Shown here: one piece after another, positions 2,858-9,427 of the stretch
How positions within the stretch are numbered: the first letter of the stretch is position 1
Layout of the letters: every line of letters begins with the position of its first letter
Virus record (IMG/VR): IMGVR_UViG_2563366799_000002
From: a virus
Taxonomy: Duplodnaviria; Heunggongvirae; Uroviricota; Caudoviricetes
Length of the DNA: 9,427 bases
Strand: one strand, 5' to 3'
Position numbers and translations under genes: made by a program
Notes under the pieces: model-generated
What the model was told of the DNA's origin: nothing
The model's input: the letters and a program-made list of their open reading frames with translations, nothing else
Databases searched by the model: none

Positions 2858-4141
2858 TTACTTCTTCGCCTCTGCAACCACTTTGCTACCCACGCCGCGA
2901 TTATTGTATTCCCACATGCGGTTGTAGTTAGTGTCATTCAGATTGCGCTGTATTTCGTCGCTATCGTCAACGCTGCCGGTATTACCCGCAAATGGACGAT
3001 TGGAAATCACCGCATCGCCCCACGGTTTAACCGTGTTAAAACCTTCGTTGATGGCGCTATCACGGATCACCACCTGACCGTTGGTATTGGCATCAACATC
3101 CAGCGAGCGGCCCAGTTGTGCCACGCCATCACCGGAAGCATTGAAACGGCTGTTTACGGCGAGGAAACCGTAATAGATGTTGGACAGCGTAGCCGGTGCA
3201 AACACATACGCTTCTTGCTGAGTACGTGAGTTCACCACGCGGAATTCGGTGTTATCGAACACCACTGCGCCGCGACCAGAAACGATATCCACATCCCCTT
3301 CAATATAGCTGTTGGTCACCAGCGTACGCGGCTGACGGTTGGTTTCCAGACGGTTCTGCACACCGCTGTTGGTGACAAAGAAGGTGTTCTGACGACCGAG
3401 AATGTTAACGTTGTTAATCTGTACCTGGTCACCATCAGTACGCAGTGCCACCGCCGGATGGTTACCTGCATCTACGCTATCGCCCAGCGTGTTTTCGATG
3501 GTCAGATTTTGCAGTTGCAGGCCATTGTTTTGTGACCAGAAGACCGCAGAGCAGAGAACACCGATACTGTCGCTGCGTTTGCTCTGGCAGCTATCGTACA
3601 TATACCACGCTGGTTTACCTGGCATATATTTGCCGCGCGGGTTGACGTCGTGACGCCAGTCGGTAGGGCTCATGCCACCATCAAGGGAAAGCCCAATCTT
3701 CACATCAATCGGTTTTTCACCTGTACCGTACAGAGTAATTCCACCCGGAGCGGCAGGGACATATACCGTTCCCTGATACTCACCAGGCATCACGGCAATA
3801 TACTGGCGCTTGTTGGTACGCTTGATAATTGCCGCATCTACCGCCGCCTGAATCGTGGTATGCGTTACACCTTGAGTGCCCGCCGGGCCGACAACAAATT
3901 CAGGTTGCGCAGGCAGGGTAATCGGGGAAGGATTCCACGCTGCAGCACCTGGTGTCAGGGATGCAAAATAGTGTTGAGCATCGAAATTCTGCGCTTCTTT
4001 TGCCGACAGAATCGGGCGAGAAGAGGTACCAGGCGCGGTTTGATCAGAAGGACGTTGATCGGGCGGGGTTGAGCTACAGGCGGTCAGCGTCACGCCAAAA
4101 GCCAATGCCAGCGCCAGACGGGAAACTGAAAATGTGTTCAC
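2858..4141 (-). CDS. ybhC: Outer-membrane lipoprotein YbhC (pectinesterase-fold, putative acyl-CoA thioesterase)
   Basis: 427-aa ORF with signal peptide and lipobox (MNTFSVSRLALALAFGVTLTAC SS), matching E. coli YbhC as I recall it. GTG start at 4141, stop TAA at 2858-2860. It is the gene that borders attB-lambda on the gal side. Confidence 0.93.
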   Translation of the reverse strand: MNTFSVSRLALALAFGVTLTACSSTPPDQRPSDQTAPGTSSRPILSAKEAQNFDAQHYFASLTPGAAAWNPSPITLPAQPEFVVGPAGTQGVTHTTIQAAVDAAIIKRTNKRQYIAVMPGEYQGTVYVPAAPGGITLYGTGEKPIDVKIGLSLDGGMSPTDWRHDVNPRGKYMPGKPAWYMYDSCQSKRSDSIGVLCSAVFWSQNNGLQLQNLTIENTLGDSVDAGNHPAVALRTDGDQVQINNVNILGRQNTFFVTNSGVQNRLETNRQPRTLVTNSYIEGDVDIVSGRGAVVFDNTEFRVVNSRTQQEAYVFAPATLSNIYYGFLAVNSRFNASGDGVAQLGRSLDVDANTNGQVVIRDSAINEGFNTVKPWGDAVISNRPFAGNTGSVDDSDEIQRNLNDTNYNRMWEYNNRGVGSKVVAEAKK

Positions 4142-4180
4142 AGGTTGCTCCGGGCTATGAAATAGAAAAATGAATCCGTT

Positions 4181-4280
4181 GAAGCCTGCTTTTTTATACT
4201 AAGTTGGCATTATAAAAAAGCATTGCTTATCAATTTGTTGCAACGAACAGGTCACTATCAGTCAAAATAAAATCATTATT
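4181..4280. other. Phage lambda attL (bacterial B arm - 15-bp core - phage P' arm)
   Basis: Core GCTTTTTTATACTAA at 4188-4202, with bacterial sequence to its left (tgaagcct) and the lambda P' arm to its right (gttggcattataaaaaagcattgcttatcaatttgttgcaacgaacaggtcactatcagtcaaaataaaatcattatttg). IHF H' site TATCAATTTGTTG at about 4227-4239. Int arm-type sites P'1 AGGTCACTAT (4249-4258), P'2 CAGTCAAAAT (4259-4268) and P'3 AAATCATTAT (4270-4279). Confidence 0.9.
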
Positions 4281-5346
4281 TGATTTCAATTTTGTCCCAC
4301 TCCCTGCCTCTGTCATCACGATACTGTGATGCCATGGTGTCCGACTTATGCCCGAGAAGATGTTGAGCAAACTTATCGCTTATCTGCTTCTCATAGAGTC
4401 TTGCAGACAAACTGCGCAACTCGTGAAAGGTAGGCGGATCCCCTTCGAAGGAAAGACCTGATGCTTTTCGTGCGCGCATAAAATACCTTGATACTGTGCC
4501 GGATGAAAGCGGTTCGCGACGAGTAGATGCAATTATGGTTTCTCCGCCAAGAATCTCTTTGCATTTATCAAGTGTTTCCTTCATTGATATTCCGAGAGCA
4601 TCAACATGCAATGCTGTTGGGATGGCAATTTTTACGCCTGTTTTGCTTTGCTCGACATAAAGATATCCATCTACGATATCAGACCACTTCATTTCGCATA
4701 AATCACCAACTCGTTGCCCGGTAACAACAGCCAGTTCCATTGCAAGTCTGAGCCAACATGGTGATGATTCTGCTGCTTGATAAATTTTCAGGTATTCGTC
4801 AGCCGTAAGTCTTGATCTCCTTACCTCTGATTTTGCTGCGCGAGTGGCAGCGACAGGGTTTGTTGTTATATGGCCTTCAGCTATTGCCTCTCGGAATGCA
4901 TCGCTCAGTGTTGATCTGATTAACTTGGCTGACGCCGCCTTGCCCTCGTTTATGTATCCATTGAGCATTGCCGCAATTTCTTTTGTGGTGATGTCTTCAA
5001 GTGGAGCATCAGGCAGACCCCTCCTTATTGCTTTAATTTTGCTCATGTAATTTATGAGTGTCTTCTGTTTGATTCCTCTGCTGGCCAGGATTTTTTCGTA
5101 GCGATCAAGCCATGAATGTAACGTAACGGAATTATCACTGTTGATTCTCGCTGTCAGAGGCTTGTGTTTGTGTCCTGAAAATAACTCAATGTTGGCCTGT
5201 ATAGCTTCAGTGATTGCGATTCGCCTGTCTCTGCCTAATCCAAACTCTTTACCCGTCCTTGGGTCCCTGTAGCAGTAATATCCATTGTTTCTTATATAAA
5301 GGTTAGGGGGTAAATCCCGGCGCTCATGACTTCGCCTTCTTCCCAT
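4276..5346 (-). CDS. int: Lambda-type integrase Int (tyrosine recombinase), apparently intact
   Basis: 356-aa ORF, 1071 nt, MGRRRSHERRDLPPNLYIRNNGYYCYRDPRTGKEF...QYRDDRGREWDKIEIK. Length, position relative to att and sequence match lambda Int as far as I can recall. The catalytic R..K..HxxR..H..Y context is present (HELRSL, GHKSDTMASQY). Confidence 0.95.
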   Translation of the reverse strand: MGRRRSHERRDLPPNLYIRNNGYYCYRDPRTGKEFGLGRDRRIAITEAIQANIELFSGHKHKPLTARINSDNSVTLHSWLDRYEKILASRGIKQKTLINYMSKIKAIRRGLPDAPLEDITTKEIAAMLNGYINEGKAASAKLIRSTLSDAFREAIAEGHITTNPVAATRAAKSEVRRSRLTADEYLKIYQAAESSPCWLRLAMELAVVTGQRVGDLCEMKWSDIVDGYLYVEQSKTGVKIAIPTALHVDALGISMKETLDKCKEILGGETIIASTRREPLSSGTVSRYFMRARKASGLSFEGDPPTFHELRSLSARLYEKQISDKFAQHLLGHKSDTMASQYRDDRGREWDKIEIK

Positions 5347-6236: not shown

Positions 6237-6517
6237 TTAAACTGCTAGTTGCAATTGCATTTCAAAGCGGTCGCGTTGTTCACAATACGCAAGAGAACCA
6301 GGGCTATTGTGTGCCTCAATCCGTTCTACCATTAATGCTGCGCGTGTCTCTTTACTTGCAGGTGCATAAGCCCCAGACCAGGCTTTATCAATACCGATGT
6401 TTCGAGCGACGTTCGTACTATCTGCGCTGGCTAAGGGTAATTTTGTGAATATCAGCGGATTTAACATGCGCAATCCATGTAGTTTCGTAACCGGCTGCCA
6501 GAAAAATGCATTCCGTG
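6237..6517 (-). pseudogene. Possible 3' remnant of an unknown gene in the non-lambda substitution
   Basis: Of the three minus-strand frames across the non-lambda segment, only one stays open from the exo junction (about 6517) to a TAA at 6237, just upstream of the next gene's ribosome-binding site ([93 protein letters not shown]). An internal ATG at 6473 would give the 78-aa ORF in the track. No family recognised. Confidence 0.3.
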
Positions 6518-6895
6518 GTTGCCGTCACTGCATAAACCATCGGGAGAGCAGGCGGTGCGCATACTTTCGTCGCGATAGATGATCGGGGATTCAGTAACAT
6601 TAACGCCGGAAGTGAACTCAAAGAGGGTTCTGGCGTCGTTCTCGTACTGTTTTCCCCAGGCCAGCGCCTTAGCGTTAACTTCCGGAGCCACACCGGTGCA
6701 AACCTCAGCAAGCAGGGTGTGGAAGTAGGACATTTTCATGTCAGGCCACTTCTTTCCTGAGCGGGGCTTTGCTATCACGTTGTGAACTTCTGAAGCGGTG
6801 ATGACGCCGAGCCGTAATTTGTGCCATGCATCATCCCCCTGTTCGACAGCTCTCACGTCGATCCCGGTACGCTGCAGGATAATGTCCGGTGTCAT
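6461..6895 (-). pseudogene. exo: Lambda exonuclease (Red alpha / Exo), truncated after codon 126 with an 18-codon foreign tail
   Basis: Residues 1-126 ([22 protein letters not shown]...[15 protein letters not shown]) match lambda Exo. After GACGGCAAC (about 6518) the sequence diverges and reads [18 protein letters not shown] instead of GLELKCPFTSRDF.... The C-terminal 100 residues of the 226-aa protein are absent, including the region I recall as carrying catalytic E129/K131. Confidence 0.85.
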
Positions 6896-7677
6896 GCTGC
6901 CACCTTCTGCTCAGTGGCTTTCTGTTTCAGGAATCCAAGAGCTTTCACTGCTTCGGCCTGTGTCAGTTCTGACGATGCTCGAATGTCGCGGCGAAATATC
7001 TGGGAACAGAGCGGCAATAAGTCGTCATCCCATGTTTTATCCAGGGCGATCAGCAGAGTGTTAATCTCCTGCATGGTTTCATCGTTAACCGGAGTGATAT
7101 CGCGTTCCGGCTGACGTTCTGCAGTGTATGCGGTATTTTCGACAATGCGCTCGGCTTCATCCTTGTCATAGATACCAGCAAATCCGAAGGCGAGACGGGC
7201 ACACTGAATCATGGCTTTATGCCGTAACATCCGTTTGGGATGCGACTGCCACGGCCCCGTGATTTCTCTGCCTTCGCGGGTTTTGAATGGTTCGCGGCGG
7301 CATTCATCCATCCATTCGGTAACGCAGATCGGATGATTGCGGTCCTTGCGGTAAATCCGGCATGTACAGGATTCATTGTCCTGCTCAAAGTCCATGCCAT
7401 CAAACTGCTGGTTTTCATTGATGATGCGGGACCAGCCATCAACGCCCACCACCGGAACGATGCCGTTCTGCTTGTCAGGAAAGGCGTAAATTTCTTTCGT
7501 CCACGGATTAAGGCCGTACTGGTTGGCGACGATCAGCAATGCGATGAACTGCGCATCGCTGGCATCGCCTTTAAATGCCGTCTGGCGAAGAGTGGTGATC
7601 AGTTCCTGTGGGTCGACAGAATCCATGCCGACACGTTCAGCCAGCTTCCCTGCCAGCGTTGCGAGTGCTGTACTCAT
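6892..7677 (-). CDS. bet: Lambda Red beta (Bet) single-strand annealing protein, full length
   Basis: 261-aa [69 protein letters not shown]...KATEQKVAA, matching lambda Bet. Its stop overlaps the exo ATG (ATGA) as in lambda. Confidence 0.95.
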
Positions 7678-7682
7678 CCGTT

Positions 7683-7793
7683 TTATACCTCTGAATCAAT
7701 ATCAACCTGGTGGTGAGCAATGGTTTCAACCATGTACCGGATGTGTTCTGCCATGCGCTCCTGAAACTCAACATCGTCATCAAACGCACGGGT
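7683..7793 (-). pseudogene. gam: Lambda gam, 3' remnant only (last ~35 codons)
   Basis: Minus-strand translation ...[36 protein letters not shown] equals the Gam C-terminus and lies 5 nt from the bet start as in lambda. Upstream of about 7794 the frame reads ...[12 protein letters not shown] and hits a stop, so there is no Gam N-terminus. Confidence 0.8.
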
Positions 7794-7822
7794 ATCTGGC
7801 TGAAAGAGGGGGTTATTAAGGC

Positions 7823-8185
7823 GTGAATACCTACAGCATCACATTACCCTGGCCTCCGAGCAATAATCGCTATTACCGCCATAATCGCGGACGCACGCAC
7901 ATCAGCGCAGAGGGGCAGGCATACCGCGATAACGTCGCCCGAATCATTAAAAACGCAATGCTAGATATCGGCCTGGCTATGCCTGTGAAAATCCGCATTG
8001 AGTGCCACATGCCGGATCGCCGTCGCCGTGACCTGGATAATCTGCAAAAAGCCGCTTTTGACGCACTCACTAAAGCAGGTTTCTGGCTGGATGATGCTCA
8101 GGTCGTTGATTACCGCGTTGTGAAGATGCCTGTTACCAAAGGTGGGAGGCTGGAACTGACCATCACCGAAATGGGGAATGAATGA
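7823..8185 (+). CDS. rusA: Holliday-junction resolvase RusA (lambdoid nin-region type)
   Basis: 120-aa ORF (GTG start) [26 protein letters not shown]...[12 protein letters not shown], matching the DLP12 RusA of E. coli as I recall it. Confidence 0.9.
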
Positions 8186-8322: not shown

Positions 8323-8407
8323 AGTCAGAGATAACAATCAACTAATACTGTTTTGTTGATTTTTGCTTGTAATTGGCGTTCTGGTCTGAGTTTTGTGGAG
8401 TAAGTTG

Positions 8408-8785
8408 ATGCGTGATATTCAGATGGTTCTTGAGCGTTGGGGAGCGTGGGCGGCTAATAATCATGAAGATGTGACCTGGTCGTCCATTGCCGCCGGTTTT
8501 AAGGGATTAATTCCTTCAAAAGTAAAATCTCGCCCACAATGTTGTGACGATGACGCGATGATCATTTGCGGGTGCATGGCCCGTCTGAAAAAGAACAACA
8601 GCGATTTGCATGATTTATTGGTGGACTATTATGTCGGCGGCATGACTTTTATGGCGCTTGCACGTAAGCATGGGCGATCTGATTGTTGGGTTGGCAGGAT
8701 GCTTCAGAAAGCTGAGGGCGTAGTGGAGGGTATGCTGATGGTGTTGGTTCTCCGATTGGAGATGGATGCTGATTGTTCGAAATAA
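8408..8785 (+). CDS. Late-gene antiterminator Q (phage 82 / DLP12 QuuD type)
   Basis: [65 protein letters not shown]... with cysteine cluster. The start is placed at the ATG at 8408 (GGAG 8 nt upstream) rather than the TTG used by the ORF track. It follows rusA-ylcG as in DLP12. Confidence 0.85.
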
Positions 8786-8883
8786 TTAAAGGAAAAGTTG
8801 CTGTCTGATTGTCATTAGTCTAACATTTTAAATGTTGGAATCGCAACGTAGTTATTATCATATAACAGCTTGTTTCCTGATTT
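8786..8883 (+). promoter_or_regulatory. Candidate Q-dependent late promoter region (pR'-like) downstream of Q
   Basis: AT-rich 100 bp directly after Q, where lambdoid phages carry pR' and the Q-utilisation site. Possible hexamers: TTGCTG (8798-8803), 17 bp, TAACAT (8821-8826); or TTGGAA (8835-8840) with TATCAT (8856-8861). The assignment is positional and not certain. Confidence 0.35.
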
Positions 8884-8912
8884 AGCCAGCCTCCCCAAAG
8901 GCTGGTTTTTTT
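8884..8912 (+). terminator. Intrinsic terminator (tR'-like) on the plus strand
   Basis: AGCCAGCC tccccaaa GGCTGG followed by TTTTTTT (8906-8912): a GC-rich stem-loop with a U-run in the plus orientation only. Confidence 0.6.
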
Positions 8913-8940
8913 CTAATAAGTATTATTTCGGGTAGGGATT

Positions 8941-9145
8941 TTATTGTTTAACCCATAATAATTCATTGACATTGAATCCCAACTTTTGAGCGGTTCGCAC
9001 ATAGTCTGCTTTTACTTTATCTGGAATAGTTGGGGTCCTTGCCAGAATCCATAGGTATTCTCTGTTCGGACCACTGACAAGAGCATACTTATACTCATCA
9101 TCCAGTTTGATTACATTATAGCCACCATAGAAGGGGCCAAAAAAC
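8941..9145 (-). pseudogene. Bacterial lipocalin (Blc-family) gene, C-terminal ~68 codons only; 5' part removed by the IS1 insertion
   Basis: Minus-strand translation ...LPFFGPFYGGYNVIKLDDEYKYALVSGPNREYLWILARTPTIPDKVKADYVRTAQKLGFNVNELLWVKQ* aligns with the C-terminal third of E. coli Blc (SFFGPFYGGYNVIALDREYRHALVCGPDRDYLWILSRTPTISDEV...FIWVQQ, from memory) but is clearly divergent. The frame runs straight into the IS1 terminal repeat at 9146. The M in the ORF track is a TTG inside IS1. The segment is visibly AT-rich. Confidence 0.75.
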
Positions 9146-9427
9146 GGTAATGACTCCAACTTATTGATAGTGTTTTATGTTCAGATAATGCCCGATGACT
9201 TTGTCATGCAGCTCCACCGATTTTGAGAACGACAGCGACTTCCGTCCCAGCCGTGCCAGGTGCTGCCTCAGATTCAGGTTATGCCGCTCAATTCGCTGCG
9301 TATATCGCTTGCTGATTACGCGAAGCTTTCCCTTCAGGCGGGATTCATACAGCGGCCAGCCATCCGTCATCCATATCACCACGTCAAAGGGTGACAGCAG
9401 GCTCATAAGACGCCCCAGCGTCGCCAT
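9146..9427 (-). mobile_element. IS1 insertion sequence, terminal 282 bp (element continues beyond window end)
   Basis: GGTAATGACTCCAACTTATTGATAGTGT at 9146 onward is the IS1 terminal inverted repeat, followed by the insB 3' coding sequence. Confidence 0.9.
9161..9427 (-). CDS. insB: IS1 transposase InsB (InsAB'), C-terminal 88 codons (partial)
   Basis: Minus-strand [91 protein letters not shown] is the IS1 InsB C-terminus. The gene runs off the window edge. Confidence 0.9.

Follow-up and report, generated by a model that had tools for sequence, protein, structure and literature searches.

The window, by which we mean the whole 9,427-nucleotide stretch of DNA that was analyzed, is identical at 9,427 of 9,427 bases to part of NCBI scaffold KE137211.1 (assembly GCA_000408645.1; locus L009, 7469-16895), where runs of N border it on both sides (L009 5014-7468 and 16896-17525). 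It opens in chromosomal DNA with an aconitase-family gene (339-2624) and a pectinesterase-family gene (2858-4141) that is ybhC-like by annotation in relatives. The lambda att core GCTTTTTTATACTAA follows at 4188, which puts the prophage at the attachment site of lambda, beside ybhC. The prophage genes include a lambda-type integrase (4276-5346, minus strand) followed by an excisionase, a truncated exonuclease (6461-6895, minus strand), bet (6892-7677, minus strand), and rusA (7823-8185), after which come ylcG and then the antiterminator Q gene on the plus strand (8408-8785). The product of the latter, 125 amino acids by annotation in relatives, matches Pfam Phage_antitermQ with an E value of 2e-50 and is labeled “antiterminator Q family protein” in genomes whose DNA is nearly identical; the mechanical open reading frame starts at a TTG at 8393. 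Within the chromosomal part, the spacer between the aconitase-family and ybhC-like genes (2639-2842) holds two tandem repeat pairs, one of 74 nucleotides at 89% identity and one of 35 nucleotides at 91%, which look like chromosomal REP/BIME elements and are crossed by long spurious open reading frames. A search of the window against Rfam at gathering thresholds gave no match.

Compared with the related prophage of strain 2EC1, the prophage in the window is missing 8.4 kb, extending from within gam to within ybcO and joined via a 19-nucleotide shared stretch at 7783-7801. The missing segment includes the repressor, cro, O, and P genes of the immunity and replication region, and the prophage is therefore defective. 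The exonuclease has 144 amino acids versus 226 in 2EC1, and similarity to 2EC1 stops at window position 6518. A public collection contains an identical truncated exonuclease protein in 163 blocks, indicating that the defective prophage is widespread; an exact match to this protein also led to scaffold KE137211.1. When the whole prophage arrangement was sought in complete E. coli genomes, no record covered at least 80% of it.

An AT-rich spacer of 155 nucleotides separates Q from a lipocalin gene fragment. Within the region 8700-9200, the sole terminator-like site (0.3 expected from shuffled sequences) is an intrinsic terminator on the Q strand at 8884-8914, composed of the stem AGCCAGCC/GGCTGGTT (8884-8907) and a T run, with a hairpin folding energy of -14.9 kcal/mol (z = -3.2). 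Judged by its position, this terminator is probably tR'. We also considered whether it acts on both strands and rejected this, as the minus-strand hairpin is followed by CTAAATCAGG, with no T run. The lipocalin fragment lies 27 bases past this strong terminator. A sequence-only reading of the region had correctly located it after Q, which ends at 8785, and a late-type terminator at 8884-8907. As a point absent from that reading, the lipocalin occupies the strand opposite to Q and is thus convergent with late transcription, which would read it antisense; it accordingly lies outside the late operon. Simple scans revealed no terminator belonging to the lipocalin itself. Scans for a sigma-70 consensus near the lipocalin in the window, and upstream of the gene in the intact locus L001, returned weak 9-of-12 matches only and no convincing minus-strand promoter.

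The fragment is the 3' part of a phage Blc-type lipocalin gene at 8941-9145 on the minus strand, comprising the third base of codon 107 and codons 108 to 174, with its stop codon at 8941-8943. The minus strand of 8941-9144 forms a stop-free frame of 67 codons plus the stop, translated as FFGPFYGGYNVIKLDDEYKYALVSGPNREYLWILARTPTIPDKVKADYVRTAQKLGFNVNELLWVKQ. This translation matches Pfam PF08212 Lipocalin_2 with an E value of 2.4e-17 and a score of 63.7 bits, where 24 is the cut-off; the match spans positions 83-146 of the 146-position profile, the C-terminal part, and 42 of the 67 residues of the fragment are identical to K-12 Blc. It also aligns to positions 108-174 of NCBIfam NF007786, “outer membrane lipoprotein Blc,” at 120 bits, which falls below the cut-off of 267 because only one third of the protein is present. 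These results confirm the earlier identification of the C-terminal third of a Blc-like lipocalin (67 of 174 residues, about 38% of the protein). The AT-richness proposed for it was likewise borne out, with 39.0% GC in the fragment versus 49.5% in the window. The whole lipocalin gene has 43.8% GC (GC3 40%), in comparison with 53.4% for K-12 blc and 48 to 53% for the neighbors Q, rusA, and bet. Lacking a promoter, a start codon, and a signal peptide, the fragment is a pseudogene piece; genomes that share its junction label it “lipocalin family protein, incomplete, missing N-terminus.”

Directly abutting the fragment is an IS1 end on the minus strand (9146-9427), made up of the right terminal repeat IRR at 9146-9168 and the 3' part of insB at 9161-9427. 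The minus strand of 9161-9427 matches Pfam DDE_Tnp_IS1 with an E value of 8.9e-47, and complete genomes with the identical junction have an annotated IS1A transposase there. The lipocalin frame is cut exactly where the terminal repeat GGTAATGACTCCAACTTATTGAT starts at 9146, as had been noted from the letters. The last eight bases before it (9138-9145; CAAAAAAC on the plus strand and GTTTTTTG on the gene strand) are one copy of an 8-bp target-site duplication. Since the ends of the window coincide with the N runs of the scaffold, the apparent truncation of IS1 at the window edge is an assembly artifact and not biology, and only the 3' lipocalin piece is visible in the window because the contig stops at an assembly gap within IS1.

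The scaffold continues beyond this gap, which is written as 2455 N, a size that is an estimate. On its far side are 224 bases of IS1 and then the 5' part of the lipocalin gene, codons 1 to 109 in 328 nucleotides, ending in GTTTCGTTTTTTG directly followed by GGTAATGACTCC. The final eight bases of this half, next to GGTAATGACTCC, are GTTTTTTG, and the same 8 bp are found at both outer junctions in KE137211.1 and in 2EC1. The two halves overlap by these 8 bp, and removal of one copy restores a 525-nucleotide gene that is identical to the intact allele of FDAARGOS_497 (L001). As neither half shows any further change, the inactivation is recent. With the break falling between codons 107 and 110 and an IS1-supplied TAA ending the 5' piece after residue 110, the open reading frame is not intact in this genome. 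The split at residues 109/110 is almost the same as the cut in an engineered split Blc (PDB 6ukl and 6vri), a match that is probably a coincidence.

From the window alone, IS1 had been thought to have removed the 5' part of the gene and whatever lay beyond it. An IS1-mediated deletion of the 5' part and adjacent phage genes has a precedent in the relative TC24, where the left junction is identical but the IS1-corA-IS1 unit abuts the right end of the prophage, with the att core and ybhB-bioA next in line. TC24 lacks the 5' part of the lipocalin as well as the lysis and structural genes, its right IS1 having caused a deletion that extends to the end of the prophage near ybhB. In the 100%-identical scaffold KE137211.1, however, the far side of the gap has the 328-nucleotide 5' part, a second IS1 end, the 8-bp duplication, and intact genes for YbgA, HTH, holin, lysozyme, and spanin, which makes a deletion very unlikely here. 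The check proposed earlier, to look across the other IS1 end for the 5' half and a target duplication, could be made in the scaffold and returned both, with a duplication of 8 bp. Insertion rather than deletion split the lipocalin, with the join across the gap depending on the scaffolding by the assembler.

The earlier choice between a simple insertion and a deletion was settled only in part, as insertion holds and insertion of one single IS1 copy is very unlikely. A lone IS1 does occur at nearly the same place in strains 027_SK3 and ABW_S38, where it lies 1 bp offset, shows one IRR and one IRL end, and interrupts the lipocalin of a Qin-like prophage. In contrast, both IS1 ends that touch the lipocalin halves in KE137211.1 are IRR (GGTAATGACTCC), which one IS1 cannot supply, so that the gap would have to hold at least two inverted IS1 copies. 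Furthermore, the gap and the sequenced IS1 parts add up to about 2.96 kb and exceed the 0.77 kb of a single IS1, and strains with the identical junction have two inverted IS1 copies around corA. Considering these data, we rate a single-copy insertion as very improbable, on a par with deletion.

The exact lipocalin/IS1 junction is found in 10 complete E. coli genomes. 2EC1 and NCTC9080 share an insert of 3.2 kb, made up of IS1, a gene fragment, ysgD, corA, and an inverted IS1, with the same 8-bp flanks. The insert of 2EC1 (L002 12547-15787) has about 1.7 kb of housekeeping DNA between its IS1 copies, and the insert is also present in loci L006 and L008. Cargo of corA and ysgD was seen in 2EC1, NCTC9080, and TC24. 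Together, these observations give us high confidence that the fragment in the window is the 3' third of a common lambdoid blc moron, recently inactivated by an insert bounded by two IS1 copies and flanked by an 8-bp duplication. The element, bounded by inverted IS1 copies with their IRR ends outward, would have entered between codons 107 and 110, and it would carry about 1.7 kb of chromosomal DNA (corA and ysgD), as it does in complete genomes with the identical junction. Since the interior of the insert is a run of N in this genome, its corA cargo is presumed from the other strains. The terminal repeat, InsB, the 8-bp duplication in an A-rich target, and, in the probable arrangement, two inverted copies moving a chromosomal segment are shared with IS1 and IS1-bounded composites in general. 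Unlike in the usual composites, the cargo in relatives (corA and ysgD) is housekeeping DNA and not a resistance gene.

The lipocalin gene is a repeated target of IS1, which occupies at least three positions in or near it in complete genomes. The IS1 of 027_SK3 (L007 6545-7320), which has the same orientation as the insertion in the window, and that of ABW_S38 represent an independent hit. In still other genomes, IS1 lies in or beside the lipocalin gene at distances of about 200 and 400 bp. IS1 prefers AT-rich targets, and the repeated hits agree with this preference.

An insertion of this kind might still allow the 3' fragment to make a product. A 72-amino-acid open reading frame does exist mechanically at 8941-9159, with a TTG start inside the IS1 end, and could be read by outward transcription from IS1; moreover, an engineered Blc split at 109/110 reassembles in solved structures (6ukl and 6vri). 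However, this frame has no signal peptide, and no recognizable promoter or ribosome-binding context, and it covers just a third of a beta-barrel. For the engineered split to reassemble, the two pieces have to share a compartment; here the signal peptide is on the N-terminal piece only, and the examined genomes with this junction annotate the 3' piece as a pseudogene. We thus consider a product of the 3' fragment to be extremely unlikely and treat the fragment as the remnant of a gene inactivated by the IS1-bounded insert.

The intact gene has 525 nucleotides and encodes 174 amino acids. The protein starts with MKLWPVLTGIALSFTLIAC-KAPTPP, which comprises a lipoprotein signal peptide with the lipobox L-I-A-C19, and this region aligns residue by residue with the ...FLVVAC18-SSPTPP of Blc. 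In the gene rebuilt from the two halves, signal peptide and lipobox are situated outside the window, beyond the assembly gap. At full length, the rebuilt protein scores 316.1 bits against NF007786, above the cut-off of 267 that the fragment did not reach. A sequence comparison of the full-length protein with the solved Blc structure 3mbt gave an E value of 3.5e-69 over residues 20-174 without gaps, matches to solved Blc structures being at about 1e-68, and the protein is accordingly predicted to adopt the lipocalin beta-barrel fold. The product would be exported and then lipidated at Cys19. By the Lol sorting rule, residue +2 decides outer membrane sorting, with Asp not permitting it. Since residue +2 of the phage protein is Lys rather than Asp, the product would probably be sorted to the outer membrane. 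Its 60% identity to Blc suggests that it would bind lysophospholipids or fatty acids as Blc does. Expression in the lysogen may occur from a putative promoter of its own in the 193-nucleotide region shared with the YbgA-family gene, antisense to late transcription. The corresponding protein family in PHROGs (PHROG 2809, a lipocalin family of the same length) is labeled “unknown function” there. We searched the literature and found no experiment on a phage-borne lipocalin, the only mention being a descriptive one in PMC6969025.

With E. coli Blc (b4149; structures 1QWD, 2ACO, and 3MBT), the phage protein shares family, length, and the layout of signal peptide and lipobox. The phage gene differs from b4149 in being a separate locus with a GC content of 43.8% rather than 53.4%, and of the Blc-like protein the window holds residues 108 to 174 only. 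Across the full gene, the phage and K-12 proteins align gap-free along all 174 residues at 60% identity, and the DNA is 58.6% identical, in line with the divergence from chromosomal Blc that was claimed for the fragment. A rearranged host chromosomal blc locus, an origin that has the shared family and nothing else in its favor, would be expected to preserve the identity to the host's own gene. These levels of identity are far too low for that, the flanking genes (Q and rusA) are those of a phage, and the identical gene is found in the same slot of isolated phages. An origin from host blc therefore has almost nothing to recommend it, and the assignment of the fragment to phage cargo stands.

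The phage lipocalin is highly abundant. A 360-base segment, from the end of Q up to the IS1 junction, is present in 1131 of 5426 complete E. coli genomes, with a lipocalin or Blc annotated in every one of the E. coli matches listed. The lipocalin also occurs in 19 phage records, of which 12 are lambdoid phages with 97 to 99% identity, and at least 129 IMG/VR viral contigs encode it. Isolated phages that have it include IdasGreatGrand and Lambda_1H12, the latter with the annotation “Lipocalin Blc.” In addition, for a set of 19 temperate Lambdaviruses of infant stools, Mathieu et al. (2020; PMC6969025) named blc, “a bacterial lipocalin,” among the morons that more than 50% of these phages carry. 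The gene interrupted in the window, the blc moron of these Lambdaviruses, gp65 of Lambda_1H12 (NC_049947), and PHROG 2809 are the same gene, with 97 to 100% protein identity. Given this abundance across E. coli genomes, IMG/VR contigs, and isolated phages and the listing as a moron in PMC6969025, the suggestion that a lipocalin would be an unusual prophage cargo is not supported.

The context of the phage lipocalin is also highly conserved. In all 80 of the IMG/VR loci examined, Q is convergent beyond the lipocalin stop codon, at a distance of 161 to 164 nucleotides in 79 and of 1485 nucleotides in one. In 78 of these loci, the divergent upstream neighbor is a YbgA-family gene, 193 to 198 nucleotides away, and the remaining two stop short of that point. 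This YbgA-family neighbor combines DUF523 and DUF1722 in the phage. The module runs in the order Q, terminator, lipocalin on the opposite strand, YbgA-family gene, AraC-type HTH gene, holin, endolysin, and spanin, and the lipocalin, YbgA, and HTH genes are found between Q and holin in L001, L004, L005, and the scaffold of the window itself (L009). Full-length relatives in other prophages and phages thus do adjoin Q, as the sequence-only reading had asked, though in convergent orientation. The blc moron of Lambdaviruses fills the same slot, with Q on one side and the YbgA-family gene on the other, and is likewise upstream of the lysis cassette. Relative to that moron, the copy studied here is split by an IS1-bounded insert and resides in a defective prophage.

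The slot following Q and the terminator is a swappable site for antisense cargo, since it holds the lipocalin here and a porin in a sister prophage. In the latter (L010 4672-5769), a 365-amino-acid Porin_1 gene, antisense between Q and holin, replaces the lipocalin, YbgA, and HTH genes. The sister prophage shares a backbone of int, bet, truncated exonuclease, and rusA with the prophage of the window. A slot filled differently in relatives and a deviant base composition are both traits of lambdoid morons, and the lipocalin locus shows the two of them. A further example is nmpC, the porin gene of the cryptic prophage DLP12, a moron that runs antisense between Q and the lysis genes and is interrupted by IS5 in K-12. 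The lipocalin shares with nmpC the slot, the antisense orientation after Q, and inactivation by an insertion sequence; it differs from nmpC in protein family and in the insertion sequence involved.

The nearest relatives of the lipocalin outside the phage cluster are Blc or lipocalin proteins of Cedecea, Scandinavium, Pantoea, Serratia rubidaea, and Klebsiella, which are 75 to 82% identical to it and were drawn from roughly 8000 homologues. The relatives examined in Cedecea and Scandinavium, two in number (L097 and L098, around 4001-4531), have a chromosomal, nonphage setting. They adjoin a MerR-type regulator and a cluster of SnoaL, SDR, amine oxidase, and DUF1365 genes. The phage lipocalin is thus nearer to the Blc proteins of Cedecea, Scandinavium, Pantoea, and Klebsiella (75 to 82%) than to that of E. 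coli (60%), and these identities, as distinct from a tree, suggest that the phage may have captured its blc gene from another enterobacterial genus.

The invariant antisense placement at Q and the terminator and the coinheritance with YbgA-family and AraC-type genes raise the idea that the phage Blc clade is not a passive copy of a host gene and has a phage-specific role in outer membrane lipid homeostasis of the lysogen, in superinfection, or in lysis. We regard such a role as unlikely. The literature we searched held no test of function for this gene, which is present in about a fifth of complete E. coli genomes. Of the earlier interpretation as a whole, the Blc-like identity, the status as phage cargo, and the interruption by IS1 have been upheld, and the unusual nature of the cargo and the removal of the 5' part have been set aside. 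The fragment in the window is a pseudogene member of the Blc family and a case of the lambdoid blc moron that has already been described. The significance of these findings extends little beyond correct annotation, in which the fragment is a pseudogene piece of a common lambdoid blc moron and the edge of the window is a gap of the assembly within IS1; the interruption by IS1 is an ordinary event and nothing new in kind. If a phage-specific role proved true, the repeated IS1 hits in or near the lipocalin gene would represent selection for its loss in some lineages and not a preference of IS1 for AT-rich targets.
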